Shown: positions 26,090-49,257, numbered from the stretch's first letter. The stretch is 64,000 nt of DNA from Planktothrix tepida (GCF_904830955.1 NZ_LR882970.1), one strand, 5' to 3'. Notes: generated by a model from the letters alone, not told the origin. A program made the numbers and translations.

Positions 26090-26240
26090 CTATGATACAG
26101 TCAAGGATCTGAGTCGGTTCTAGCGGGGAACAGTCGCTAGAAGTAAGGGGAAAGTTTGGCGCAAATCCAACACTGTCCCGCAACTGTGATGAGAGTCTTG
26201 ATCTCTAAGTCAGAATACCCACCGAAATCAGATTATTCTT
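26090..26240 (+). ncRNA. cobalamin (B12) riboswitch
   Basis: AAGGGGAAAGTTTGGCGCAAATCCAACACTGTCCCGCAACTGTGA matches core consensus (AAGGGAA..GGTG.AAATCC..AC.GTCCCGC.ACTGT.A); B12-box-like AAGTCAGAATACCCACC near 3' end; upstream of hupE. Confidence 0.75.
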
Positions 26241-26261: not shown

Positions 26262-26942
26262 ATGATGTTTATGATGTTCAAATCATTTCAGCGTTTTTGT
26301 CAGGATTTCTCGCTACAAAATAATAATCGAGTCTTTTTTTTAGGCATCAGTTTATTATTACTGTTGATGGCGCAACCTGCCACAGCCCATCATGCCTTTG
26401 GCGGTCGAATTCCGAAGAATTTTTTTGAAGGATTTTTATCAGGACTCGCTCATCCCATCATTGGAATTGATCACTTTGCCTTTATTCTTTCCATTGGTTT
26501 AATTGCAGCTAGTATTGTGGGTGGAATTTGGATAATTGTCGGGTTTCTAGGGGCTGCTATGTTAGGGACAGCAATCCATTTAATGAGTTTTAATTTGCCG
26601 GTTCCTGAAGTGGCGATCGCCCTATCGGTGATTACCATTGGCATTTTATTAGTGCTGAAAAAACAATTACCCCTAGCCGTATTAATCAGTTTAGCAAGCG
26701 TAGCGGGTTTATTTCATGGCTATGCCTATGGAGAATCAATTATGGGGGCAGGAATGATGCCTTTAATCTCCTATTTGGCAGGATTTACTTTGATTCAATT
26801 GGGAATAGCGGGAGCGACGATGAAACTCGCTCAATCCTTCCAACAAACCTTAGAAACTAGCAAATATTCCCTGATCAAATATTCAGGTTTTGCTGTTGTA
26901 GCGATTGGGGTAATTGCTTTATCTAGTGCAATTACAGGCTAA
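26262..26942 (+). CDS. hupE: HupE/UreJ family metal (Ni/Co) transporter
   Basis: signal peptide, HPxxGxDH motif (LAHPIIGIDH), 6 TM. Confidence 0.8.
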   Translation: MMFMMFKSFQRFCQDFSLQNNNRVFFLGISLLLLLMAQPATAHHAFGGRIPKNFFEGFLSGLAHPIIGIDHFAFILSIGLIAASIVGGIWIIVGFLGAAMLGTAIHLMSFNLPVPEVAIALSVITIGILLVLKKQLPLAVLISLASVAGLFHGYAYGESIMGAGMMPLISYLAGFTLIQLGIAGATMKLAQSFQQTLETSKYSLIKYSGFAVVAIGVIALSSAITG

Positions 26943-27030: not shown

Positions 27031-28068
27031 ATGTCTGCCAAAATTCCTGTTACCGTCATTACTGGATTTTTAGGAAGTGGAAAAACCACCACCATTCGTC
27101 ATTTATTACAAAATAATCAAGGTCGTCGCATAGCCGTTTTAGTGAATGAATTTGGAGAAGTCGGTATTGATGGAGAATTGATCCGTTCTTGTCAAGTTTG
27201 CGATGATGAAACCCCAGAAGTCAACTTAGTAGAACTCACCAATGGTTGTTTATGTTGTACCGTGCAGGAAGAGTTTTTTCCCGCTATGCAAGAACTTCTA
27301 AAACGACGAGATAAAATCGATCATATTGTGATTGAAACCTCTGGGTTAGCATTACCAAAACCCTTAGTTCAAGCCTTCCGATGGCCGGAAATTCGCACGG
27401 GTGCAACAGTTGATGGTGTTATAACCGTAGTAGACTGTGAAGCCATTGCTAAGGGGACGTTAGTGGGGGATATTGAAGCAGTTGAAGCCCAACGTCAAGC
27501 TGATCCTAATTTAGATCATGAAACCCCTATTGAAGAATTATTTGAAGATCAACTCGCCTGTGCGGATTTAATTTTATTAACAAAAACCGATCATGTTGAT
27601 GCCGAAACTCAACAGAAAGTTGAAACCTGGTTAAAACAAGAATTGCGTGAGGGCGTTAAAATTGTTTCTTGTCAACAGGGAAATATTCATCCTGATGTGA
27701 TTTTAGGGTTTAATTCAGCCGTTGAGGATAATTTAGAAGCCCGTCCCAGTCATCATGACACTGAAGAAGAACACGAACATGATGATAATATTAATTCAGT
27801 TCCTGTGATTTTAACCCAAGACTTTGAACCTCAAGACTTAATTGAACGGTTAAAAACAATAGTTAAACAACAGGAAATTTACCGGATTAAAGGGTTTGTT
27901 TCGGTTCCCCATAAACCGATGCGGTTAGTTTTACAAGGAGTTGGCGATCGCATTGAAACCTTTTATGATCGTCTCTGGAAACCAACAGAATCTCGTCAAA
28001 CCCAATTAGTATTTATTGGGGAAAATTTACAAGCTTCTGAAATTAAAAATGCCGTTTTAGGGAATTAA
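27031..28068 (+). CDS. COG0523 (CobW/HypB/UreG-type G3E) GTPase metallochaperone
   Basis: Walker A GFLGSGKTT, GCLCC metal motif, His/acidic stretch HHDTEEEHEHDD, C-terminal CobW_C. Confidence 0.85.
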   Translation: MSAKIPVTVITGFLGSGKTTTIRHLLQNNQGRRIAVLVNEFGEVGIDGELIRSCQVCDDETPEVNLVELTNGCLCCTVQEEFFPAMQELLKRRDKIDHIVIETSGLALPKPLVQAFRWPEIRTGATVDGVITVVDCEAIAKGTLVGDIEAVEAQRQADPNLDHETPIEELFEDQLACADLILLTKTDHVDAETQQKVETWLKQELREGVKIVSCQQGNIHPDVILGFNSAVEDNLEARPSHHDTEEEHEHDDNINSVPVILTQDFEPQDLIERLKTIVKQQEIYRIKGFVSVPHKPMRLVLQGVGDRIETFYDRLWKPTESRQTQLVFIGENLQASEIKNAVLGN

Positions 28069-35418: not shown

Positions 35419-36141
35419 TTAATATTGTTCAACTCCTGGGGGAGTAAAGCGAATTTCGATACGTCTTCTTGTTTCATCAGAAGCACGATTTTGCGACGCA
35501 TATTGTCCTGAAGGTAAAAATAATTGTGCGGCTGAATAAGCTCTAAATTTTAACCCCTTTAAACGACCTTGTTCTTGAATAGCTTGGAGTTTTTTAACAA
35601 CTGCTAAAGAGCGCATTAATCCTAAATCAGCATTGGAACCGGGTTTGAGATTTTTAACAGGTTGGTTCCCCTGTGCAACTTGTTCTAAGATTTGATCTAA
35701 ATTACTAGCAGGATTAAAGGTTTCTTGACCATCAGTATGTCCAATTACATCCACTACATAACCTTGATAAACTTTAGAAAATTCCTCTAATTTTTCCACC
35801 ACATTCCCTTCAATAAAAATTCGCAACCCTTCCGGTAAATCTGCCTTACCTGTCTCAAATTTTAAAGATCGCCCCTGTGCATCTCGATCAGAATCTTTAA
35901 TCACAATGACTGGTGGAGCTTTTAATCGTTCAATTTCGTTTTTTAATGAACCAACTGTTAATTCTAAGCCTTTAATTTTCTGATCTTTTTCTTTTGAATT
36001 AGAAGTTAATAACGATGATTTAACAATGGCTAACAATAAAAACAAGCTCATAATTAAAAAAGCATTAGACATTAAATCTGTAAATGCTTGCCAGACATTC
36101 AAATCTTCCGATGAATTTTTAATTTGAGTCGGACGACGCAT
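35419..36141 (-). CDS. MotB/OmpA-family protein (N-terminal TM with conserved Asp, C-terminal peptidoglycan-binding OmpA-like domain); ZorB-like
   Basis: WQAFTDLMSNAFLIMSLFLLL MotB plug/TM motif; C-terminal GHTD...RRRIEIRF OmpA_C signature. Confidence 0.8.
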   Translation of the reverse strand: MRRPTQIKNSSEDLNVWQAFTDLMSNAFLIMSLFLLLAIVKSSLLTSNSKEKDQKIKGLELTVGSLKNEIERLKAPPVIVIKDSDRDAQGRSLKFETGKADLPEGLRIFIEGNVVEKLEEFSKVYQGYVVDVIGHTDGQETFNPASNLDQILEQVAQGNQPVKNLKPGSNADLGLMRSLAVVKKLQAIQEQGRLKGLKFRAYSAAQLFLPSGQYASQNRASDETRRRIEIRFTPPGVEQY

Positions 36142-36275: not shown

Positions 36276-37847
36276 TTATTTACTTTCCCAAAATTTTGGT
36301 TTATTTTTCTTAATTCCCGGATTACCGCTTTGTTCTTTTAAGAGTTTAAGTACCTGAGATAAATCAGATTTCATCTCAATAATATACTTAATATTAGGTT
36401 TAATTGCTGCTTCTAATTTATCCGCTAAGACTTGTGAATAGGACTGACTACTATTTGTTTGTTCTTTAATGAGCTTATTCATCATTTTACTTAAAGATTC
36501 TAGTTCAAAATTCACTGTATTTGTATAACTATTAAGGGTTTTAACTAAGGTTTCTAATTGTTTATGAATACCTTCTAAATGATCGGATTTATCAATAAGT
36601 TTGTTTTGGATATTCTCTAACGTTTGAGAACTTAACTCCAAGCTTTTTCCTCCTTGTTGCAGTTGAGGAATAATTTCAACTAGGGATTGTTGATTAATTT
36701 GATTTAACTCTAAAACTTGTAAGGAACTTTGATTAAGTTCACTTAATTTTGTTTCCGTTTTTAATAACTGCTCTGTAAAGATCTGAAGTTGATTTAATAT
36801 TGTTTCCAAAGATTTAACCGTTTGAAATAAACCGAATGCTGAGTCAGAAAAATTCTTTTGATTCTCTCCAAAATCAGTAGCGATTATTGATAATTGTTTA
36901 GGAAATTCACTTTGTTCAAAACCTTGAGCAACTTGTTCTAATTTATCAGCCGTTGTGTTACTCACTTGTACCGCATTTGTAAAACTTTCTGTGGCGGTTT
37001 GAAACTCTCTAGCTCCCCTTTCTAACGTTCCTGTAGCATTGGATAATTGACTATAGACTTTTAGAGCTAATTCACTCGCTTCTACATTCGCTTTTGTAAT
37101 TTGATGAATATTATCTCTCATGGCAGATTCCACCGCATCTCTAACAGTAATACCAAATCGATCTAAAAAATCTTTAAATTCACTCGACATTCCTTTAACA
37201 ACTTTATCCAACCGAGTTTGACCATTTAAGGATGAATAATAAATATTATCGAGGTAATGTTCTAAAGAAACCGTTAAACGATATTTCGCTAGACTCGTAT
37301 TCCATAAAAAGTTTAAAACAGTTAATAATGCACTACACAATAACCCAGCTAAACTGGTAATAAAAGCGATCGCCATTCCTTCTAGGGGTTGTTTTAATTC
37401 CTCTACTAACTGACTAACATCCGTTGCTTGACTTTGACTAATAGTTTGACTCAAAGAACCCAAATTGACCGTAATTCCAATAAAGGTTCCAATTAATCCA
37501 AAAGCCAGGAGTAAATTCGGAATAATTCGACACCAATATTCAATTTGTTCGCAGGATTTCCCTAAAACCTTTTCTTGGCTGTAGGCTTGATCAATCAAAG
37601 CCGCCGTGTTCACTTGTTCTAAATTTTGGCTGGATTCTGCAAAACTCTGTTCTAAAACTTGTACAATCGCAGGCGGGAGTTCAAGCTCCCGTTTATTGAT
37701 AATCTGATAAATTTTATTCGCTTGAGTGGTTAAATGTTGATAAAGATTCCAGCGATAATAGAGGGTAATGATCGAGGGAATAAACACAAATATCCCGATC
37801 AAAATGATTAACAAAGGCGGTAAAGGAGGAAAAGAAGGAAACAACAT
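36276..37847 (-). CDS. MotA/TolQ/ExbB proton-channel family protein with ~330-aa C-terminal coiled-coil tail; ZorA-like
   Basis: AFGLIGTFIGI and MAIAFITSLAGLLCSALLTVLNF match MotA/ExbB TM2-TM3 signatures; residues ~200-523 heptad-rich Q/E/L/K. Confidence 0.75.
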   Translation of the reverse strand: MLFPSFPPLPPLLIILIGIFVFIPSIITLYYRWNLYQHLTTQANKIYQIINKRELELPPAIVQVLEQSFAESSQNLEQVNTAALIDQAYSQEKVLGKSCEQIEYWCRIIPNLLLAFGLIGTFIGITVNLGSLSQTISQSQATDVSQLVEELKQPLEGMAIAFITSLAGLLCSALLTVLNFLWNTSLAKYRLTVSLEHYLDNIYYSSLNGQTRLDKVVKGMSSEFKDFLDRFGITVRDAVESAMRDNIHQITKANVEASELALKVYSQLSNATGTLERGAREFQTATESFTNAVQVSNTTADKLEQVAQGFEQSEFPKQLSIIATDFGENQKNFSDSAFGLFQTVKSLETILNQLQIFTEQLLKTETKLSELNQSSLQVLELNQINQQSLVEIIPQLQQGGKSLELSSQTLENIQNKLIDKSDHLEGIHKQLETLVKTLNSYTNTVNFELESLSKMMNKLIKEQTNSSQSYSQVLADKLEAAIKPNIKYIIEMKSDLSQVLKLLKEQSGNPGIKKNKPKFWESK

Positions 37848-37909: not shown

Positions 37910-40900
37910 TTAACAACCATATTTCCGTAGAATTTCTTCTTTCTCAAATTCATATCCTTTTTGAGTAATGAACCCCTGATCTAATTTTTGTTTTAGCTGC
38001 CTTAATTTTGCCTCTAAACTGTCATCACTTTGGTTAAAATCTCTGGAATTTTCTCCACGCTTTACTAAAGCGGCAGAATCGTCATTAACCGATGTTGGTA
38101 AACTTCCAGTCTTAGTTAGACTTTCCTGAATTTTTCGACGAAAACGATTAATAACTCCTTCATGTCCTAAATTATTAATTGTACCCGGAGTCCCCACAAC
38201 CGTTGATTTATAAAGATAATTAGGATTAGATTCAGGTAAATTATCCACATAATCCACAAATTGCTGTAATCTGGGTAAATATTGACTTTTCCAGAGATCA
38301 GGATTTTGACGAATCTGATTAATTTCCTCCTCTAATAACTCGTTTAACGTTTTCGTCATTTCTCGGTGATTCGCTAGTTCTTCTAACGCTTGATTCCAAA
38401 TTGGGTTCAGTTCTGCTGTATAATAATAGTCTCGTAAATTATCGTAATATTGAAACTCTAAGCCTTGATTTTTAGGATTTTTAACAATTAACTGAAATGC
38501 TAAACAAGGATAGAAAACATCTTCCAATTCTTCCATGAGTCTAGCATCTGGGGGGATAATATCAGTAAAGGGGATCTGATAATCAGAATGACAAGTTGAG
38601 CCATCTTTATTTTGTTCTCGGATATAATGATTTCTGATTTCTTCTAAACCATTAATCAACCGTAAAGGAAACCCACCATATTCCCGAACAATTAAAATTT
38701 GATCTTCAGCTTGAGTCGGTTTTAAAGCCGTTGGGTCGATTCCCAAATCACGAGTCAGAGTCATTTTAAACTGATTTACTTCTACCTCATCGGTATCTTT
38801 AAATCCAATAAATTCTTTTCGTTTATCCGAAAGATTAGAAAAATAAGGATCACTCACATTTAAACGTAATAAAGGTTCTGCCTGCTCAATAATTTGTCCT
38901 AAACGGGTAGGACGAATTGACCCAGAATATTTTTGAATAAAACGCTTAATCACAGATTTAACAATTTGGTTACTCCGAGAACCAAATTCACCATCTATTT
39001 TTTGATCAATTTCTGTTTTCAGTTGCTCTCCAGTGGTACGATTAATTAAATAGCAGATCGATTCTCCTACCCCAGATGCCTCTGTAATATCTTTACTCAC
39101 TAACACCAATGCAGAGCGAAACTCTAAATCAGGTAATAAGGTTTGATAACATTCTTCAATATCTTCTTGAGCAAAAATAGCTTCTCCACTCATTTCATTA
39201 AAATTAGAATTTATCAGATCATTTTGTTCTTTCTCATAATTCGTTTTTAAATTTTCGATCATCCGGCTAAAGGTGGCAACTTCAGTCGAACAATCTCTAA
39301 CATACTTTTGCAAATCATTGACGATTTTTAATGTTTCTTGAGTTACTGCTAATTTGAAATTATGCTGAATTAACTGCATAATACTTTGAACAACGTTTCT
39401 CGCTAATCTCTGAATATCGGCATTTTTACGATTCAGTATGGGGAGTTCAATTCTTTGCTCTATCTCATCCATGTTCTGTTCTAAATCTCGCAATTTTTTC
39501 TCTAAGTCTTCATTTTTTTTCATTCCTTCCCCTTGACTAATTTCTTCCTCTAACTGACGTTGATAGGTGTTTAATTCTGTTTGCATCGCCTCTAACCAAT
39601 CACGAACACTTTTAGTCGAAAATTTGGGATTGCTAGGGGTCATTAATTCCTCAATAAATTCATTAATATGATTTTTCAATTGTTGAGCGATGAGCGGTTG
39701 TACCTGCATTAACCGAGTTAACCAAATTCCTCTTGTTGTTTCCGTTTCTCCCGGCAGAACTTTTCTGAACTGTTCTCGTAATTCTCGTAATAAGTTGTTT
39801 TTTAAACTGAGCCGATCTTCACTATTTCTACACTCATTAATTTTTTGAATTAATTTCTCTCTGAATTTAGTTAAGGTCGTAGAAAAGTTTTTGCTCCCTT
39901 CTTGAACGCCTCCAGCAAGTCGTTCTTTAAACCCATCCCGTTGGATTAAATCGCTATACCAATTATATTTAATCAAAAATTGTTCAATAATTAATTGAGG
40001 ATCGGGACTTTGACCTTCTCCATTTAACCAAAAATTAACCAATTTTAAACTAATTCGATTTAAGGCAATTTTTACGATAATTTCACGAGGAAAATAAATC
40101 GCAGCCAAGCCAAAGGTTAAATATCCTTGAGTATTAGGACGGGGATGATTATCCGATTGAATTAAATGGTTTAGTAAATTATCCCGCATTCCTTTAGCAA
40201 CAGGGGCTAATTCTCCGATAAAATCTAACGCGATTTTATGGGCAATTACATTACATAATTTTTGTTGTTCTAAGATTGTATATTCACCGTTCGTTTCATT
40301 AGAAATTAAATAAGTATAATCAAATGGGGCGCGAGGTTCCTGAACAATTACCAAATTTTGCATATCATAACAAGCTTCAAATCGAGTCCCCGCACTGCTA
40401 TAATAATTGAGTTCTTTTAAGGCTGCATAAGTATTAGCATTCATATAGGACGCATTGCTGTATAACTGTGGACTTACCACTAAATATCCGAGTAATTGCG
40501 TGCCTTTATCTCCATAGGATTTCCTTAAACTATAAGCAACATCTAAAAACATTCCGCTTCCTGTACCGCCACAGAGGGAACCAATCACAAAAATATTTAA
40601 TCCGGGTTCAAGTTTTAATCTGGCTTTCAGTAAGGTTGCTTCATGACCCATTGTCCGTTTTGCTGCGGTTTCAATGACAGTTTTGATCTTTTGATAATTA
40701 TGAAAAAACGCTAATCTTCCCACAGGTCGAATTCCTTTTGCTCCTTCTTCAACGGCTCTAATATTACGAAGTAATTGAGGCGGAAACCAGCGAGAAATAT
40801 GATCAAACGGCCCAGAACGATTGGATTTAGAACGCTGTTCTACACCTCGCACAAAATTGGTTACTTCTGCGGAAGTTAAAATGGCATTTACTTTTTCAGA

Positions 40901-41137
40901 ATCTCGAAAACTTAAATCAACACCCCGATAGGTATTACCTGTTTTTAAACTGGCGGACTGAGTGGCAGTTTTATCTGTGTCAATATGAACAAAACTAACA
41001 ATTGGTAGTTCTGTTAAATCTCCATATTTTTCTACAATTAACCGCCGAATTCGCATTAAAACATCTCGTCCTGTTCCTCCTAATCCGATACAAATTGTGC
41101 GTTGAACTCCTTGCAGTTGATAATCATTAGCTTGCAT
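37910..41137 (-). CDS. 1075-aa tubulin/FtsZ-superfamily-like GTPase domain protein (Tubulin_2-like) with long helical C-terminal region and SHOCT-like C-terminus
   Basis: GLGGTG (T1-like) at aa 18-23 and GSLCGGTGSG (tubulin signature [SAG]GGTG[SA]G-like T4) at aa ~188-197; C-terminal LEAKLRQLKQKLDQGFITQKGYEFEKEEILRKY resembles SHOCT. Confidence 0.6.
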   Translation of the reverse strand: MQANDYQLQGVQRTICIGLGGTGRDVLMRIRRLIVEKYGDLTELPIVSFVHIDTDKTATQSASLKTGNTYRGVDLSFRDSEKVNAILTSAEVTNFVRGVEQRSKSNRSGPFDHISRWFPPQLLRNIRAVEEGAKGIRPVGRLAFFHNYQKIKTVIETAAKRTMGHEATLLKARLKLEPGLNIFVIGSLCGGTGSGMFLDVAYSLRKSYGDKGTQLLGYLVVSPQLYSNASYMNANTYAALKELNYYSSAGTRFEACYDMQNLVIVQEPRAPFDYTYLISNETNGEYTILEQQKLCNVIAHKIALDFIGELAPVAKGMRDNLLNHLIQSDNHPRPNTQGYLTFGLAAIYFPREIIVKIALNRISLKLVNFWLNGEGQSPDPQLIIEQFLIKYNWYSDLIQRDGFKERLAGGVQEGSKNFSTTLTKFREKLIQKINECRNSEDRLSLKNNLLRELREQFRKVLPGETETTRGIWLTRLMQVQPLIAQQLKNHINEFIEELMTPSNPKFSTKSVRDWLEAMQTELNTYQRQLEEEISQGEGMKKNEDLEKKLRDLEQNMDEIEQRIELPILNRKNADIQRLARNVVQSIMQLIQHNFKLAVTQETLKIVNDLQKYVRDCSTEVATFSRMIENLKTNYEKEQNDLINSNFNEMSGEAIFAQEDIEECYQTLLPDLEFRSALVLVSKDITEASGVGESICYLINRTTGEQLKTEIDQKIDGEFGSRSNQIVKSVIKRFIQKYSGSIRPTRLGQIIEQAEPLLRLNVSDPYFSNLSDKRKEFIGFKDTDEVEVNQFKMTLTRDLGIDPTALKPTQAEDQILIVREYGGFPLRLINGLEEIRNHYIREQNKDGSTCHSDYQIPFTDIIPPDARLMEELEDVFYPCLAFQLIVKNPKNQGLEFQYYDNLRDYYYTAELNPIWNQALEELANHREMTKTLNELLEEEINQIRQNPDLWKSQYLPRLQQFVDYVDNLPESNPNYLYKSTVVGTPGTINNLGHEGVINRFRRKIQESLTKTGSLPTSVNDDSAALVKRGENSRDFNQSDDSLEAKLRQLKQKLDQGFITQKGYEFEKEEILRKYGC

Positions 41138-41158: not shown

Positions 41159-42307
41159 TTATTTTTGAATTTTAATGGTTAATCTGTAGTTTTTGGGAGG
41201 TTTAGGATTAGGGCAATTAAAATTTATCCTACTTCTGGTTATTTGGATTTTTTGATCGACAATTTTGTCTTGATATTCAATCCGGCTATTGTTCGTCGGT
41301 TCTAAATAAAGTTTTTCTCCTTTTCTGACTAAATAAGCCCGAACTTCTGCTCCAGGTAAATCAATGGTATCCTGACAACCAGATTCATATTCACCAATGG
41401 CAATTCTTTGATGATTACCGAGAGAGCAGGTTTGATCTGCTACCTGATCATCATCATCAAAATTAACCATCAGTTTCCATTTTTTATTCAAACGATAAAT
41501 TTTAATTCCCATCCCGACACTAGCAAGAATTAAAATTCCTAAAATTAATCCGGGTAGCCATAACTGTTTCCATAAATAAGGAGAAACTAAACAAGTTTCT
41601 TTCTGTCCGGGGGTAGGAGTACAGAACTCTTGAACATTCGGAGGAATATCAACAATTGTTAGGTTATATTGTCGCTGTTCTTGAGTTTTAATCGGAAGCG
41701 ATCGCTGATTTAAAGGTAATTGATTTAACCACTCTTGGCGCTGTTGTGTTTCTGGAGAAGTTGCTATTCGGAAAGGACTGTCTGCTGGGGTTTCCGTCCA
41801 TTCTTCAGAGGTAGCAGGGGATTTTGTAAATAACGGTGCATCGGTAATCCAAACAATCGATTGCGGTTTAATCGGTTGATTCTGGGTTAAACGACATTGA
41901 TTGAGATCTGCTAAACCCTGATAAATCGTTAACTCAGCTTTTTGAATATCGGTATTTTGTAATCTCAGGTCAGGCTGAAAGGTAATTAATTGTAAAATCT
42001 TTTCTACATCGGCTTTCCCTTTAAACTGAATTGCAGTTTCTAAAGTTAAAGGGTTGATCTCAGGTGTTGAAGGGTTAGTTTTTGTAGCAAAAGGCACAAC
42101 ATAAACGGTGTCTCCTGATTTTAAGCTATCTTCAACAATTTGACGTAAACGCAAATGACCTTCATCATTCAAACCGACGCTTTCCGTTAGGTCAATCGCC
42201 AGTACCACATCCCGTCCGCCATGTAGACGAGTGACTGATTCCAAACCGATTTTCTGGAAAGGCGTCAACGGTTGACCTGGTGCGACTGGGGTACAAATCT
42301 CACTCAA
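41159..42307 (-). CDS. vWA-domain protein with single TM helix and C-terminal FHA-like domain
   Basis: VVLAIDLTESVG MIDAS-like DxTxS; TM LWLPGLILGILILASVGMGI; C-terminal GAEVRAYLVRKGEKLYLEP...NNSRIEY FHA-like. Confidence 0.55.
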   Translation of the reverse strand: MSEICTPVAPGQPLTPFQKIGLESVTRLHGGRDVVLAIDLTESVGLNDEGHLRLRQIVEDSLKSGDTVYVVPFATKTNPSTPEINPLTLETAIQFKGKADVEKILQLITFQPDLRLQNTDIQKAELTIYQGLADLNQCRLTQNQPIKPQSIVWITDAPLFTKSPATSEEWTETPADSPFRIATSPETQQRQEWLNQLPLNQRSLPIKTQEQRQYNLTIVDIPPNVQEFCTPTPGQKETCLVSPYLWKQLWLPGLILGILILASVGMGIKIYRLNKKWKLMVNFDDDDQVADQTCSLGNHQRIAIGEYESGCQDTIDLPGAEVRAYLVRKGEKLYLEPTNNSRIEYQDKIVDQKIQITRSRINFNCPNPKPPKNYRLTIKIQK

Positions 42308-42559: not shown

Positions 42560-43252
42560 CTATTCCTTGTTTCTGATTGTCTGTTGCTTGCGATTAGGGG
42601 AAATCTGTTGTTCCTGAAGTTGTTTTAATTGTTGATGAACGTCTGAAGCAATTTCAAAGGCTTGATACAGGAGTCTTCCTTGTTCTGTTGTGGGTTTTTC
42701 TGTTTGTAAGACCGTTAAGGCGGTGAAATTTGGATCAAAAAGTTCGGAATATTGCTGAATAAATTTTTGATGTTTTTTCAAGGTTCGTTCTATTTTTAAT
42801 CCTTTAATTAATTCTGTTCTAATTAAGTTTAAAGCTGCAATAATAGCTTCTCGATTGTTTAATTTTCCAGGGGGATGGGCTATTGCATCGAGTTGATCAT
42901 AAATTTTTAAGGCTTTAACAATGGCGTTATAACGCTCCACTTGATGACACAGTTTAACGAATTGGGGACGGGTTAAGGTATTCCACAGTTTTACACTATC
43001 CTCAAGAATTAATAGTCCCCCAATGGTTAAATAAATTATGATTAAAATTAAAGAGAGTTCTGGAAAAATTAAACTCCAAATCCAATAACTCATTAATAAT
43101 AATAAAAAGATAAAAAAGGTTTTTAAACCTTCCCCTAATAATTTTTTAACGGTAGCTGGTCGGTAGAGTAACTTCTGATTAATACCACTCCAATGTTTGA
43201 TTTCCCCTGGTGTAATTTCTAATCCTTCTAAATCAGATTGTGTGTTACCCAT
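42560..43252 (-). CDS. hypothetical 2-TM membrane protein (N-terminus MGNTQS)
   Basis: two adjacent TM helices then ~150-aa soluble helical domain. Confidence 0.55.
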   Translation of the reverse strand: MGNTQSDLEGLEITPGEIKHWSGINQKLLYRPATVKKLLGEGLKTFFIFLLLLMSYWIWSLIFPELSLILIIIYLTIGGLLILEDSVKLWNTLTRPQFVKLCHQVERYNAIVKALKIYDQLDAIAHPPGKLNNREAIIAALNLIRTELIKGLKIERTLKKHQKFIQQYSELFDPNFTALTVLQTEKPTTEQGRLLYQAFEIASDVHQQLKQLQEQQISPNRKQQTIRNKE

Positions 43253-43373: not shown

Positions 43374-44012
43374 TCAAGAGGGCGCATCGGCAATATATTT
43401 GTCATACCCTCCAGCTTTCTTGATCTCATCAGGAATCAGTTTTTGGATGTCATTTTCGGTGCGGAGGGCTTTTTGATACGCCCATTCAGGACAAGCCGGA
43501 AGGGATTTTTTACTTTCACTATACACAGAATTTATCTGAACTAAATCATTCAGTTCTTCCTCGATGGGTCGGGGTTCTAAACGACATTTGAGTAAAAATG
43601 AATCATATTGATCGGCCATTTGTTCATAAACCCTGGAGGCGACTAAATGGGTATTCGCTTTACCATTGGGATCTAAAAAGGTTAATAACGGTGCAAGAAT
43701 AGCGACTAAAACGGGAATAATCACCGCCACTAATTGATAATTTCCGCCTAAACTGGAGATGGCTTGCACACCAGCAACAGCCGCTAAAACGGTGCTGGGA
43801 ATGCCAATATAAAGATGAGTTCTTGTCCAGCGAATGGAAACATAAATATGAGCTTGGCTTAAAACCCGACAGACGGTTTTGCGATCAAAAGCACGATAAA
43901 TGATATCTTCCTGGGCAACATAAGAAAGTGGTTTACCTGAATTTTCTTCTAAAGGAACAGAGGAACTCACGGGGTTATTAATCAGATTATCAGGGTTACT
44001 GGATGCACTCAT
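43374..44012 (-). CDS. hypothetical 2-TM membrane protein (SLATT/DUF4231-like topology?)
   Basis: TM pair LYIGIPSTVLAAVAGV / LVAVIIPVLVAILAPLLTFL then soluble C-terminus. Confidence 0.5.
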   Translation of the reverse strand: MSASSNPDNLINNPVSSSVPLEENSGKPLSYVAQEDIIYRAFDRKTVCRVLSQAHIYVSIRWTRTHLYIGIPSTVLAAVAGVQAISSLGGNYQLVAVIIPVLVAILAPLLTFLDPNGKANTHLVASRVYEQMADQYDSFLLKCRLEPRPIEEELNDLVQINSVYSESKKSLPACPEWAYQKALRTENDIQKLIPDEIKKAGGYDKYIADAPS

Positions 44013-44134: not shown

Positions 44135-45580
44135 TCAACTTCTGTTCAATTCTTGATCAGGAGTAACACCCTTTAACCAAACGATAAATGTAGTTCCTCT
44201 AGGAATATTCCCCCGAGAAAGCATCTCCTTGGAGACCCAAACCGAATTAACAGGAGAGAACACTTCAATCTTTCCCTGCATTTGTTCGACTAAGGTTTTT
44301 GCGATCGCTAACCCTAACCCTGTCCCCGGAATTTCTGAACTTTCTTGGACACCCCGATAGTGACGTTCAAATAAATGGGTTAAATCTTCTGGGGGAATAC
44401 CAGGGCCAGTATCACTAATGCCAATTCCCACTTGCAGGGGTTGGGATTTCCGTTTTGTAGTGAATCGAACTCGAAGACAAACTTTTCCCCCGGATGGCGT
44501 ATATTTTAAGGCATTATCGAGCAGATTACTCAAGACTTCTCGTAAAGCTTTACGATTCCCTAGGATAACGGGTAATTGGGGGGGAAGGTCAACAAGACAT
44601 TGAAGTTGTCGTTCTTCAGCGATAGCTTGGGTTGATAAAATTAACGGTTGCAAGACCTCGGACAATTCTAGGGGTTCGAGTTCATCCCAGGCGGGTAACA
44701 AGGTTAACACCGAGGGCGGAAAAGTCGCTTCTTCCCCAGGAGGAGTGGAAACCAAGACAGAATCAACGGTTAGGGGTAAGCTCAAATCAGGTTCTGTGTA
44801 GTCTAAAGTTTGATCAGCTTGTTGTAACAACTCTTGAATGCGATCGCTCTCTCGTAGAATACTATTGGCAATCGGATAATTTTTATCGTCCGGTAACAAC
44901 CGCTTTAATAATAATTTTCCAAAGGTACGCACCGCCGTGAGGGGACTTTTGAGTTGATGAAAGATATTATGAAGGGCATCGGCTTGTTGCGCCTGTAGGT
45001 GTTGTTGTCGGCTTAATTGTTGTTGGAACCATTGGGAGCGTTGATCTAAAATACAACCCAGGGCTAAGGTATGGGCAATTCCTTGCAATTGGCCATATTC
45101 CTCTGGGTTCCAGGAACGATCATTGCGTCCCGTTACTAAAAAGCCTAAGACCACCTCTTCTTGAATTAAAGGTAACACCGTTTGACTGCGTTGTTGCCAA
45201 CTTTCCTCTTCTTCTAGGGGTTGCTCTCCCTGTGCTTCGGCTTCTATAAAATCATTGATATCCACCGCAGGTAACAAAATCCAGGTTTTGGTAATTTCTT
45301 CTGTTGTTAACAAACGAGGTAGAGTTGAAGTTAACAGGGTCGGAAAGCGCATCAAACCCGGAATATCCAAATCTTCCAGGGAGGTTTCAGGATAAGTGGC
45401 GATCGGAATTAATTTCTGATGTTCCTCATCCACCCAAGCCTCAGCCAAATACACCACACTCAAGGACGCACCTAAACTCGCCGTCAATGACAATTGCGTG
45501 CGACAGAGTTGGACAAATTCAGAACTAGCTGTAAGCATAGGAGGAGGAGCCGGGGGATCAGTGTACTGATTTTGTATCAA
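44135..45580 (-). CDS. sensor histidine kinase, soluble, N-terminal GAF-like domain + HisKA + HATPase_c (Hik2/CSK-like)
   Basis: H-box HNIFHQLKSPLTAV, N/G1/G2 boxes LSNLLDNALKY...GTGLGLAIAKTLV. Confidence 0.85.
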   Translation of the reverse strand: MIQNQYTDPPAPPPMLTASSEFVQLCRTQLSLTASLGASLSVVYLAEAWVDEEHQKLIPIATYPETSLEDLDIPGLMRFPTLLTSTLPRLLTTEEITKTWILLPAVDINDFIEAEAQGEQPLEEEESWQQRSQTVLPLIQEEVVLGFLVTGRNDRSWNPEEYGQLQGIAHTLALGCILDQRSQWFQQQLSRQQHLQAQQADALHNIFHQLKSPLTAVRTFGKLLLKRLLPDDKNYPIANSILRESDRIQELLQQADQTLDYTEPDLSLPLTVDSVLVSTPPGEEATFPPSVLTLLPAWDELEPLELSEVLQPLILSTQAIAEERQLQCLVDLPPQLPVILGNRKALREVLSNLLDNALKYTPSGGKVCLRVRFTTKRKSQPLQVGIGISDTGPGIPPEDLTHLFERHYRGVQESSEIPGTGLGLAIAKTLVEQMQGKIEVFSPVNSVWVSKEMLSRGNIPRGTTFIVWLKGVTPDQELNRS

Positions 45581-47405: not shown

Positions 47406-48560
47406 CTAAAAACGACAGGTTAAGGTGGTTTTAACGGGACAGGCTCGTTCTGTCAAGGGATTCCCTCTAAGGTCTAATCCGGTTAGGTTGGTCAAGCTTT
47501 GCAATGGACGACTATCGGAAACTTTAGTATTATACAAATCTAACGTGATTAATTGAGTTAACGATTGCAAGGGTGCAAGATTTGAAACCGAGGTATTAAA
47601 CAAGCTGAGGATTTTGAGGTTGGTCAATGCTTGTAAGGGGGTTAAATCGGAAATGGGATTATTTCCAATGTAAAGTTCGGTTAGATTGGTCAGGGTTGCT
47701 AAAGGACGCAGATCGGAAATTTGATTATCAAATAAAGTTAATTGGTTGAGATCGGTTAAAGAAGCCAGGGGCGTTAAATCTGCAATTTGATTGTTAAAAA
47801 GTAGCAGTTGTTTTAGATGAGTTAAAGAGCTAAGGGGAGTTAAATCAGCAATTTGATTATCATAAAGGGCTAAATAGCTGAGTTTCGTTAAGGGGTGTAG
47901 CGGTGTAATATCAGAAATTTGGTTTCCCTGTAAGGATAATTTTTTTAAGGTTACTAAAGATTGCAACGGCGTAATATCTTGAATTTGATTATCAAATAAT
48001 ACTAAACTTTTTAATCGGGTCAAATTTTTAAGCGAGGTTAAATCCGTAATTTTATTCGTATCTAAAATTAAGGTTTCTAGCGCTATTAAGGAAGAAAGAG
48101 GGGTCAAATCATGAATTTGATTGACATCTAGTGCTAAGACTTTTAAATTTTTGAGATTAGCCAATGGCGTTAAATCAGAGATTTGATTTCCACTTAAATA
48201 CAAAAATTGTAGTTGAGAAAAAGAACTTAAGAGGCTTAAATCTTTGATTTGATACCCACTCAAATTTAATTGAATCAGTTGAGATAGAATTTTATTTGCT
48301 ATTTTACAGTCTTTGGTTTGAGAAATTTCTAATAATAAATCTAGTGTTTTTTGTGTTTCTAAGTTTAAATTATTTTGATTTAAACAAATCGTTTCAAAAT
48401 TATTTAAAGGTTGTACAGCATTCTCTGAAGCTAAAGCAGGATTTAGGGGTAATAAAAATATTAAAAAATTGAGTGCTATTTTATAGGGATTTATGTTAAT
48501 AAATTTTATCATGATTTTAATAAAATTTTTGTTTTCAAAAAAACACAATAAAATCAACAC
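47406..48560 (-). CDS. leucine-rich-repeat (internalin-type 22-aa LRR) secreted protein
   Basis: ~13 consecutive LxxLxxLxxLxLxxNQIxDLTPLxx repeats; N-terminal signal peptide (start likely internal Met MIKFININ). Confidence 0.8.
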   Translation of the reverse strand: MLILLCFFENKNFIKIMIKFININPYKIALNFLIFLLPLNPALASENAVQPLNNFETICLNQNNLNLETQKTLDLLLEISQTKDCKIANKILSQLIQLNLSGYQIKDLSLLSSFSQLQFLYLSGNQISDLTPLANLKNLKVLALDVNQIHDLTPLSSLIALETLILDTNKITDLTSLKNLTRLKSLVLFDNQIQDITPLQSLVTLKKLSLQGNQISDITPLHPLTKLSYLALYDNQIADLTPLSSLTHLKQLLLFNNQIADLTPLASLTDLNQLTLFDNQISDLRPLATLTNLTELYIGNNPISDLTPLQALTNLKILSLFNTSVSNLAPLQSLTQLITLDLYNTKVSDSRPLQSLTNLTGLDLRGNPLTERACPVKTTLTCRF

Positions 48561-48579: not shown

Positions 48580-49257
48580 TTAATCCTCAACCTTAATAAT
48601 TTGATAACACTCTTCAACAGAAGCCCGATTTTTCATGGCTTCTACCAAGCGATAATAGGTCGTTTCGTGATTTTGAATTAAGGTTTTAGCTTGTAAAATA
48701 GCCCAACGTTCTTTAACTTTGGCTTCACTCATCGGACGGTTTAACTGAGTCCAAATTGCGGTAATTTTTTCTCGGTCTTCCTGTCCTCCCTCCGCCTTTT
48801 GAAATACTAACGTTTCTGCGGCGATTCCCGCCATCCAAACCGTACAATAACGATCTAAAACCCGTGATGAAAGTTGACCTTGCTGCAATTGTTCCCATAA
48901 CCGTTGATCAGCAAACTGCACCCCGCCTTGAGCCTTTAATCCCTGTTTGAAAGCTTCCCAACCATTTAACGCATATCCCTGAATGGGAATTTCCATCAAA
49001 TAGGCGACTAAAAAATGTCCGGCTTCATGGTGTAAAATTCGTTCCCGAGTGGAAGCCGAAGTTCCCGCTAACCAATCTACTAATAAATTAGCACCTTGAC
49101 CTTGAAATTGAAAAACATCTAATGTCGCAACCCCTAATAAAAAACAAGTTACACTCGCCGGAATAAAAGGCGAAATATTGAAAACCGGACTCAATAACGC
49201 CGATAGGGTTATGCAGAAAACACTAATTGCAATCAAGTTTAAACTGGTCGTTCTCAT
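48580..49257 (-). CDS. membrane-anchored Zn-metalloprotease-like protein with peptidase-M41(FtsH)-type HEAGH motif, no AAA domain
   Basis: ILHHEAGHFLVAYLM resembles FtsH TAYHEAGHAIV; N-terminal TM. Confidence 0.55.
   Translation of the reverse strand: MRTTSLNLIAISVFCITLSALLSPVFNISPFIPASVTCFLLGVATLDVFQFQGQGANLLVDWLAGTSASTRERILHHEAGHFLVAYLMEIPIQGYALNGWEAFKQGLKAQGGVQFADQRLWEQLQQGQLSSRVLDRYCTVWMAGIAAETLVFQKAEGGQEDREKITAIWTQLNRPMSEAKVKERWAILQAKTLIQNHETTYYRLVEAMKNRASVEECYQIIKVED

Follow-up and report, generated by a model that had tools for sequence, protein, structure and literature searches.

We analysed a 64,000-nt window from Planktothrix tepida (GCF_904830955.1 NZ_LR882970.1; G+C 38.2%), the window being the whole stretch of DNA considered here, with attention to the 1075-amino-acid (aa) protein encoded at 37910..41137 on the minus strand. 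This protein belongs to the tubulin/FtsZ superfamily, within the FtsZl1 (Pfam PF13809 Tubulin_2) family, and it is encoded as the second gene of a four-gene operon that is under strong joint selection as one unit in cyanobacteria. The other members encode a vWA-like membrane protein (gene 1) and two proteins that, judged by profile comparisons, are homologous to the motor proteins ZorA and ZorB of Zorya (genes 3 and 4). We propose, with a probability of roughly 60%, that the tubulin-like protein assembles at the inner membrane under the control of a ZorAB-like motor, with the vWA-like protein as its anchor.

The 1075-aa open reading frame (ORF) had been pointed out in an earlier inspection of the bare DNA (hereafter the sequence-only reading). 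It is present on the minus strand with an ATG start and an end coordinate that includes the stop codon; read on the plus strand, the interval is interrupted by numerous stops. Pfam PF13809 matched aa 15-367 over profile positions 1-355 of 356 (E 3.2e-109; 365.9 bits against a cut-off of 27), and the domain was carried by all 120 homologs among the matches listed. The affiliation with the large Tubulin_2/FtsZ-like proteins suggested by the sequence-only reading, which had also proposed a search with this model, is therefore borne out by significant tubulin/FtsZ matches, and a length of ~1000-1200 aa is normal in the family. The general Tubulin/FtsZ profile PF00091 matched the window protein weakly, over the T4 region; in the 36 orthologs used for Pfam scans (E <= 0.1) it matched 36 of 36, with a best E of 7e-6. 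FtsZ_C and Tubulin_C gave no Pfam match in the protein. Its closest relatives are Planktothrix proteins of 97% and 91% identity, and full-length orthologs across cyanobacteria are 54-97% identical. The Tubulin_2 domain as a whole is matched by about 4,600 clusters at 50% identity; of the 150 best cluster representatives, most have lengths of 950-1250 aa.

Two glycine-rich motifs had first drawn attention to this protein. GLGGTG lies exactly where it had been reported, at aa 18-23 (41069..41086, minus strand). GSLCGGTGSG is likewise present, two residues earlier than the approximate 188-197 first given, at aa 186-195 (40553..40582, minus strand). The pattern [SAG]GGTG[SA]G is the PROSITE tubulin signature, and Cys189 occupies its first position, the single deviation already noticed from the sequence. 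This position is variable in the family: among 116 family members, over which all family-wide residue frequencies were counted, it is A in 43, C in 31, L in 16, S in 12 and M in 5. In all six reading frames of the window there is a single GGTG[SA]G, and the PF13809 match (E 3e-109) rules out a chance occurrence of the motif.

When the protein and its ortholog profile were searched against PDB sequences, they returned coiled-coil noise only and no solved sequence relative, so the fold had to be compared through a predicted structure. A full-length AlphaFold2 (AF2) model was built from a 68-sequence alignment including distant cluster representatives (pLDDT, the predicted local distance difference test, 90.2; pTM, the predicted template-modelling score, 0.79). 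Structure comparison of this model ranked tubulins first: CetZ (score 24.5; 296 of 342 residues), an Asgard tubulin (24.0; 325 of 422), gamma-tubulin (23.5; 332 of 432), alpha-tubulin (23.1; 325 of 427), BtubA (23.0; 322 of 413), TubZ (21.5; 274 of 303) and FtsZ (20.0; 262 of 315), with the first non-tubulin match, an SDR protein, at 9.8 (167 of 258). The best 50 Foldseek matches were all tubulin, BtubA or CetZ, with probability 1.00 and colinear alignments of 340-395 columns. An earlier AF2 run on aa 1-410 with 36 close orthologs was poorer (pLDDT 59.7, residues 277-381 unreliable) and gave the same structural ranking. On the basis of these rankings, the predicted structure places a complete two-domain tubulin fold in aa ~9-410 (39908..41113, minus strand), consisting of the GTPase domain, helix H7 and a second, activation-type domain.

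The nucleotide-binding loops are found at the expected places of this fold. In the model, G18-G23 of the first motif lie between a strand (9-19) and a helix (20-38), and G190-G195 of the second lie between strand 174-187 and helix 192-211; the two motifs thus sit at the T1 and T4 positions, the outcome on which the sequence-only reading had made its interpretation depend. A profile-sequence hhalign comparison with E. coli FtsZ, which served for motif register only and not for homology, aligned the T1, NTD, T3, T4 and T5 motifs colinearly; its probability was low (6.5-7.8%) because the template was a single sequence. In this register GLGGTG aligns to FtsZ GVGGGG and GSLCGGTGSG to GMGGGTGTG. The T3-type loop RAVEEGAKGIRPVG (aa 127-140; 40718..40759, minus strand) aligns to GLGAGANPEVG, with GAKGIRPVGR opposite GAGANPEVGR, and IDTD and VVsPQLYS are paired with FtsZ NTD and VVTKPFNFE, respectively. 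The T5 loop and helix H5, PQLYSNASYMNANTYAALKELNYY (aa 223-246; 40400..40471, minus strand), contain the base-contact-type Asn235, and we take this region to resemble the '...EPYNATLS' of tubulin.

Conservation of the putative GTP pocket, a check suggested by the sequence-only reading, follows the same loops. Among the 116 relatives, W117, R137 (T3), G190, G191 and T192 (T4), E242 (T5/H5) and G343 are invariant, and G18, G20, G21, G23, G132 and A133 (T3), R141, S187, G193-G195, D199, N235, Y237 and R318 are near-invariant; G20, G21 and G23 are invariant in the family-wide alignment A7. In the T5/H5 region, N235 is found in 107 members, Y237 in 109 and E242 in 116. Since these loops are conserved and correctly placed, it is very likely, judging from sequence conservation, that FtsZl1 binds GTP. 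A candidate T7 loop with helix H8, DFIGELAPVAKGMRDN (aa 305-320; 40178..40225, minus strand), follows the helix 291-303 that would be H7 in the model. It reads L-D305-F-I-G-E309; among the cyanobacterial orthologs E309 does not vary and D305 has a conservation of at least 90%. Over the 116 family members, an acidic residue is found at position 305 in 104 and at position 309 in 68, and R318 is kept in 106. Because this loop was assigned by its position in the model and the second acidic residue is variable family-wide, polymerisation-activated hydrolysis can be proposed only tentatively, and GTPase activity and polymerisation of FtsZl1 are putative.

Beyond the tubulin-like core, the model is helical over aa 351-643, with several helices of 17-28 residues and one of 74 residues (570-643). 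The stalk or bundle proper comprises aa 418-643 (39209..39886, minus strand) in the AF2 secondary structure, and its PDB sequence matches were of the coiled-coil type only. The sequence-only reading had extended the helical region over ~700 residues; this holds for aa 351-643 but not for aa 651-1010 (38108..39187, minus strand), which the model folds into a mixed alpha/beta globular domain without an explanatory Pfam or PDB match. The domain carries the motif E819-x-G-G-F-P-L-R together with Y838 and H850 (E819 in 110, Y838 in 113 and H850 in 104 of the 116 members). This motif (aa 819-827; 38657-38683, minus strand) is conserved across the whole FtsZl1 family.

After a disordered linker (aa 1012-1035), the protein closes with a helix-turn-helix tail at aa 1035-1072 (37922..38035, minus strand; helices 1035-1053 and 1059-1072 in the model) and ends, as had been quoted, with LEAKLRQLKQKLDQGFITQKGYEFEKEEILRKY. 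The tail had been described as SHOCT-like. PF09851 (SHOCT) was matched by 19 of 36 orthologs (E <= 0.1; best E 3.3e-8) and SHOCT_2 by three, while the tail of the window protein alone remained below threshold (E 0.013; 15.7 bits against 27; positions 2-28 of a 28-residue profile), so the label appears right for the family and marginal for the window copy. DMAP_binding and GvpG profiles matched the same stretch; GvpG, DMAP_binding and PHA_synth_III_E were rejected as indications of function, since all fell on this one C-terminal motif and reflect its SHOCT-like similarity. FtsZ and TubZ have a similar arrangement of core, flexible linker and short conserved C-terminal element, and their tails dock partner proteins. 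By analogy, the FtsZl1 tail may dock a partner as well.

The stator unit that had been noticed beside FtsZl1 consists of genes 3 and 4. Gene 3 (36276..37847, minus strand) encodes a 523-aa ZorA-like protein of the MotA/ExbB family, with three transmembrane (TM) helices (aa 12-30, 108-130 and 160-178) and a helical cytoplasmic tail of ~340 aa. It matched 14 PADLOC ZorA models (best E 1.4e-12), several of them limited to the TM2-TM3 core (1e-9), and its ortholog profile matched the ZorA chains 8qyd_A (5.6e-6) and 8vvn_C (1.5e-4) in the PDB, where no MotA, ExbB or TolQ chain was matched. P110, N111, L112, L113, G117, G120, T121 and G124 are invariant. By these similarities gene 3 would be a remote relative of ZorA and not a member by curated thresholds. 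The ZorA-like orthologs (L001-L084) range from 414 to 733 aa (median ~545) and are the least conserved of the four proteins, with a mean pairwise identity of 52%; the helical tail is expected to account for nearly all of this variation in length. In the E. coli Zorya system, tail length was reported to be functionally critical.

Gene 4 (35419..36141, minus strand) encodes a 240-aa ZorB/MotB-like protein in which an N-terminal TM helix with Asp22 is followed by an OmpA-type peptidoglycan-binding domain, the two elements expected of a ZorB, namely a proton-binding Asp in a TM helix and a peptidoglycan-binding domain. It matched PADLOC ZorB at 5e-9, and its profile matched ZorB 8vvn_B (1.5e-6), PomB and ZorB 8qyd_F (1.7e-3) in the PDB. 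Invariant positions are F20-T21-D22 (in the context FTDLMSN), G134-H-T-D137, S169-N-A-D-L-G-L175 and R225-R-R-I-E-I-R-F232. As for further Zorya components, no PADLOC family, whether for ZorC/ZorD, ZorE, ZorF/ZorG or any other protein, matched FtsZl1, the vWA-like protein or a 230-aa protein encoded upstream of the operon.

Gene 1 (41159..42307, minus strand; ORF with a TTG start) encodes a 382-aa protein whose N-terminal ~240 aa contain a pattern of the metal-ion-dependent adhesion site (MIDAS) type, followed by one TM helix (aa ~250-268) and a beta-rich C-terminal domain of ~110 aa that looks FHA-like by eye. D38xT40xS42, T118 and D155 are invariant among 26 orthologs. Pfam VWA_2 was matched by only 2 of these 26 (E 0.043), a profile search of the PDB gave no sequence relative, hhalign against a Nostoc punctiforme vWA protein aligned only the MIDAS strand, and taken together the Pfam, NCBIfam, PADLOC, PDB-profile and hhalign tests lent little or no support to a vWA assignment. 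Its ortholog Ava_1847 was listed as a COG2304 vWA protein in the supplement of Makarova and Koonin (2010), and this assignment and the MIDAS pattern weakly suggest a vWA-like identity.

The four genes follow one another in the same direction on the minus strand, separated by 21, 62 and 134 nt. Scanning one genome per species, we found relatives of FtsZl1 in 499 genomes; the best 80, all cyanobacteria, were taken as ortholog loci and, with four further loci, formed a synteny set of 84. All four ORFs are present in 68 of the 84 loci, and in all 68 the order and strand of vWA-like, FtsZl1, ZorA-like and ZorB-like genes are kept; most of the remaining 16 loci are cut by contig ends. The pairwise identities of the four proteins co-vary (r 0.70-0.92). 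FtsZl1 itself has a mean pairwise identity of 68% across orders, which is as conserved as a housekeeping protein, and its nearest neighbours track taxonomy (Trichodesmium-Okeania, Fischerella-Westiellopsis, Umezakia-Anabaenopsis). The flanks of the cassette vary by genus and are mostly housekeeping genes; in the window, dnaK/dnaJ, CCB1, genes for a PadR regulator and a VanY peptidase, and cobW, which is preceded by a cobalamin riboswitch, are among them. Coverage of FtsZl1 reached 80% in no plasmid or phage record, and only distant paralogs on 11 plasmids and one weak phage match were seen.

Loss or decay was observed in five loci. The FtsZl1 gene stands alone in L024, and the ZorA-like gene is missing in L071. 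L043 has no vWA-like gene upstream and an insertion before the ZorA-like gene. In L033 FtsZl1 is split and accompanied by a fused, truncated stator remnant, and in L027 it is interrupted by inserted genes. In the census of Makarova and Koonin (2010), the cassette was recorded in Anabaena variabilis, with only a paralog in Nostoc PCC 7120, and was absent from other cyanobacteria too.

The linkage of a tubulin relative with ZorAB-like genes is also present in a second phylum, Deinococcus. The neighbours of a distant FtsZl1 gene on plasmid pRadio2 of D. radiophilus matched ZorA (7e-7) and ZorB (8.5e-8) models. At this locus (L085, 6980-13101), the FtsZl1 gene, ~25% identical to that of the window, is followed by an IS630 transposase, a 246-aa hypothetical protein, the ZorA-like gene (annotated 'methyl-accepting chemotaxis protein') and the ZorB-like OmpA gene; there is no vWA gene, and two ORFs (434 and 107 aa) lie upstream instead. 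Paralogous pairs of vWA and tubulin-like genes were also seen on two other plasmids, both large and neither with a stator pair at the locus: beside a TROVE-domain protein and a BREX BrxL protease on Thermus oshimai pTHEOS01 (L088, 2712-12363), and beside a caspase-family protein on N. punctiforme pNPUN01 (L089, 95-8294).

How these proteins might work together is suggested by Zorya, in which a 5:2 motor driven by protons and anchored to peptidoglycan uses a long cytoplasmic tail to signal to soluble partners (PMC11946911). By analogy with ZorAB, the ZorA-like and ZorB-like proteins would form a 5:2, proton-driven, cell-wall-anchored motor with its tail reaching into the cytoplasm. FtsZl1, as a cytoplasmic protein, would bind GTP and self-associate at the inner membrane, where the vWA-like protein may hold it, possibly via the acidic SHOCT-type tail, much as FtsZ is bound to its membrane anchors by its C-terminal peptide. 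The motor tail and FtsZl1 may be physically coupled, so that motor activity would control FtsZl1 assembly, or assembly would control the motor. The most likely role of such a device is an envelope-linked cellular function, either membrane or envelope remodelling or the sensing of envelope perturbation, which is favoured by vertical inheritance, slow evolution and housekeeping flanks.

Several observations weigh against this proposal. First, the similarity to ZorA and ZorB is remote: gene 3 scored 30.9 bits with NCBIfam antiphage_ZorA_2 (cut-off 100) and 17.9 with Pfam MotA_ExbB (cut-off 22.9). Second, the T7 loop is placed by its position in a predicted model only, and its second acidic residue is found in just 68 of 116 members. 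Third, the vWA identity of gene 1 is weak in every statistical test, and its topology is ambiguous. Fourth, the cassette is dispensable and sometimes decays, so an accessory or defence role fits it at least as well as a cellular one.

The strongest alternative is that the cassette is a new Zorya-like anti-phage or conflict system, in which the motor senses phage-induced envelope damage and triggers the FtsZl1/vWA pair in place of the ZorC/D nuclease effectors; this pair might then assemble in a GTP-dependent way and thereby block infection or shut down the filament cell that is infected. The closest solved relatives of the stator genes are ZorA and ZorB, which are also the only MotA-family proteins with long helical tails to have been characterised, and sets of tubulin, vWA and sometimes GTPase genes have been read as conflict systems enriched in multicellular prokaryotes (PMC7159879). 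Furthermore, the plasmid-borne vWA-tubulin paralogs lie beside caspase (L089) and BrxL and TROVE (L088) genes, the cassette is dispensable, being absent from Nostoc PCC 7120, present in A. variabilis and decayed in some genomes, and a SLATT-domain protein is encoded just upstream in the window. However, the SLATT gene is common only to the nearest Planktothrix genome, no PADLOC model matches FtsZl1 or the vWA-like protein, and neither a nuclease nor a classic effector is found at the cassette. In addition, FtsZl1 neighbours follow taxonomy with housekeeping-like conservation, the flanks in the window and in four other genomes are housekeeping genes and not defence islands, and no copy of the subfamily occurs on plasmids or phages. 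On balance we regard an anti-phage system of this kind as possible but doubtful. Dispensability, decay, kinship with ZorAB and the conflict-type neighbours of the paralogs likewise keep a defence role within the motor-coupled proposal possible, although there too we would bet against it.

A second alternative concerns FtsZl1 alone, which could be a non-polymerising GTP switch that regulates its partners as a monomer or dimer and forms no filament. Makarova and Koonin (2010; PMC2875224) raised this possibility when T6-H7 and the C-terminal domain were not found by sequence. The variable second acidic position of T7 is in line with it, and the stalk and C-terminal domain are bulky parts that could get in the way of longitudinal contacts. 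Against it, the predicted structure contains the whole two-domain fold, with H7 and the D305/E309 loop at the T7 position. To our knowledge, every characterised member of the tubulin superfamily polymerises, and the SHOCT-type tail would, by its Pfam description, serve in oligomerisation. We therefore judge a pure switch unlikely. Finally, a TubZ/PhuZ-type DNA-segregation tubulin or a second cell-division FtsZ can be rejected as highly improbable on gene context and distribution, since the gene is chromosomal without a TubR-like or centromere partner, has no ortholog on plasmids or phages and no FtsZ_C or Tubulin_C domain, is accompanied by membrane and cell-wall proteins, and is missing with its cassette from many normally dividing cyanobacteria such as Nostoc PCC 7120.

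The motor-coupled proposal has wider implications. FtsZl1/Tubulin_2 ranks among the largest branches of the tubulin superfamily, and the window locus is a clean and strongly conserved example of it; its complete predicted tubulin fold makes filament formation and GTPase activity worth testing, and the vWA-like anchor and SHOCT-type tail suggest how FtsZl1 may stay at the membrane. Recognition of the partner catalogued in 2010 as 'B7' as a putative ZorA homolog ties a tubulin relative to a proton-driven 5:2 motor in two phyla. If the coupling is true, it would widen the range of outputs of 5:2 motors and of Zorya-like systems, and it would provide the first function for a tubulin relative common in the bloom-forming Planktothrix, Microcystis and Trichodesmium. 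More tentatively, and with the odds somewhat against it, a proton-driven, peptidoglycan-anchored rotary motor of the ZorAB type, coupled physically via its long cytoplasmic tail to a vWA-tethered tubulin-family GTPase polymer, could represent either a new Zorya type with a cytoskeletal effector or the first prokaryotic tubulin machine to be coupled to an ion motor, one that cyanobacteria have kept for hundreds of millions of years and that is found also in Deinococcus.

Other features of the window were also recorded. The gene directly upstream of the cassette (42560-43252, minus strand) encodes a 230-aa protein that has two TM helices and matched no family, and next to it on the upstream side, at 43374-44012 (minus strand), is the gene of the 212-aa SLATT-domain protein (NCBIfam SLATT_4, 7e-27; PADLOC '2TM effector', 1.8e-20). 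The two recur together only in the nearest Planktothrix genome (L005), and one weak match to the 230-aa protein lies far upstream in L050 (28% identity); they were therefore rejected as cassette members and appear to form a two-gene module of their own, which may be conflict-related. A 481-aa GAF-HisKA-HATPase histidine kinase is encoded two genes upstream of the cassette at 44135-45580 (minus strand); the neighbouring ORFs that were scanned included no cognate response regulator. The cobalamin riboswitch (26099-26240, plus strand; Rfam RF00174, 53.1 bits) lies just upstream of genes for a HupE/UreJ-type transporter (26262-26942) and a CobW-family GTPase (27031-28068). A 384-aa protein consisting almost entirely of leucine-rich repeats (47406-48560, minus strand; 12 LRR_4 stretches, E 6e-73) is encoded beside a 225-aa protein with a weak, sub-threshold Peptidase_M41-like match (48580-49257, minus strand). 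A promoter and terminator scan found fewer sites than in shuffled sequence.

Comparison with known systems places the locus as follows. The literature found on the FtsZl1 family consists of comparative-genomic papers, with no experimental paper among them; no papers were found for the locus tags Ava_1848, Tery_1707 and MAE_58770, and the Zorya structural papers and a 2025 survey of MotAB relatives mention no tubulin partner. With CetZ, archaeal and Asgard tubulins, gamma-tubulin, BtubA, TubZ and FtsZ, FtsZl1 shares the two-domain fold and the loops T1, T3, T4 and T5 at only 11-22% sequence identity. Unlike these solved structures, it has an insert of ~80 residues between S2 and T3 and ~660 extra C-terminal residues (stalk, alpha/beta domain and SHOCT tail), and it lacks an FtsZ_C or Tubulin_C Pfam domain and a division or segregation gene context.

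With ZorA5B2 of Zorya (Hu et al., 2024, Nature; 8QYD, 8VVN, 8VVI), the cassette shares a MotA/ExbB-type subunit with a long helical tail, a MotB-type subunit with a TM Asp and a peptidoglycan-binding domain, and the placing of the pair beside soluble partners; among solved structures and PADLOC models, genes 3 and 4 match ZorA and ZorB best. The tail is shorter, however (~340 aa compared with ~500 aa), the pair is accompanied by a tubulin-like GTPase and a membrane protein of vWA-like type in place of ZorC/D/E/F/G, and the cassette is inherited vertically in housekeeping neighbourhoods, with a similarity to Zorya that is remote and below NCBIfam cut-offs. Membrane-tethered vWA proteins that are encoded with a 5:2 proton motor, and are predicted to work with it, have been described for TolQ/ExbB-type motors (Mol Biol Evol 2025, msaf138), and the pairing of vWA with a 5:2 proton motor is shared with them. 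In those systems the vWA domains are periplasmic force transducers or TolR replacements with TolQ-like partners and no tubulin, whereas gene 1 has no signal peptide and adjoins a ZorAB-like motor. The sets of tubulin, vWA and GAP1-N2 GTPase genes in Firmicutes and Actinobacteria, read as conflict systems (Kaur, Burroughs, Iyer and Aravind, 2020, eLife 9:e52696, PMC7159879), likewise combine a protein of the tubulin family, fused at its C-terminus to coiled-coil or helical regions, with membrane-associated vWA proteins; the present cassette differs in having a ZorAB-like stator pair instead of a GAP1-type GTPase, FNIII or HSP70, and in its cyanobacterial lineage.

The closest known counterpart is the FtsZl1 operon described by Makarova and Koonin (2010, Biol Direct 5:33, PMC2875224), who predicted a system for membrane remodelling in which vWA, GTPase and OmpA-family proteins are the partners, and whose sequence analysis followed the family only to helix H5, without finding T6-H7 or the C-terminal domain. 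Their Additional file 5 lists Ava_1847 (381 aa, vWA), Ava_1848 (1085 aa, FtsZl1), Ava_1849 (524 aa, family 'B7') and Ava_1850 (215 aa, COG1360 MotB), the operons Tery_1709-1705 of Trichodesmium and MAE_58760-58800 of Microcystis, and, in Deinococcus, DR_0538 (FtsZl1), DR_0537 (MotA/TolQ/ExbB) and DR_0536 (OmpA). Gene sizes of 381/1085/524/215 aa in Anabaena correspond to 382/1075/523/240 aa in the window, and the length class of about 1000-1200 aa, an FtsZ-like domain at the N-terminus, the helical or coiled-coil middle and a C-terminal domain are shared, this last being mixed alpha/beta in the window model and 'mostly alpha-helical' in the 2010 description. The family and its operon were thus already catalogued in 2010, and the window protein is a new ortholog and not a new kind, its locus differing in nothing essential from the cyanobacterial operon; the present analysis adds the ZorA-like character of 'B7', the full tubulin fold in the predicted structure and the SHOCT-type tail.

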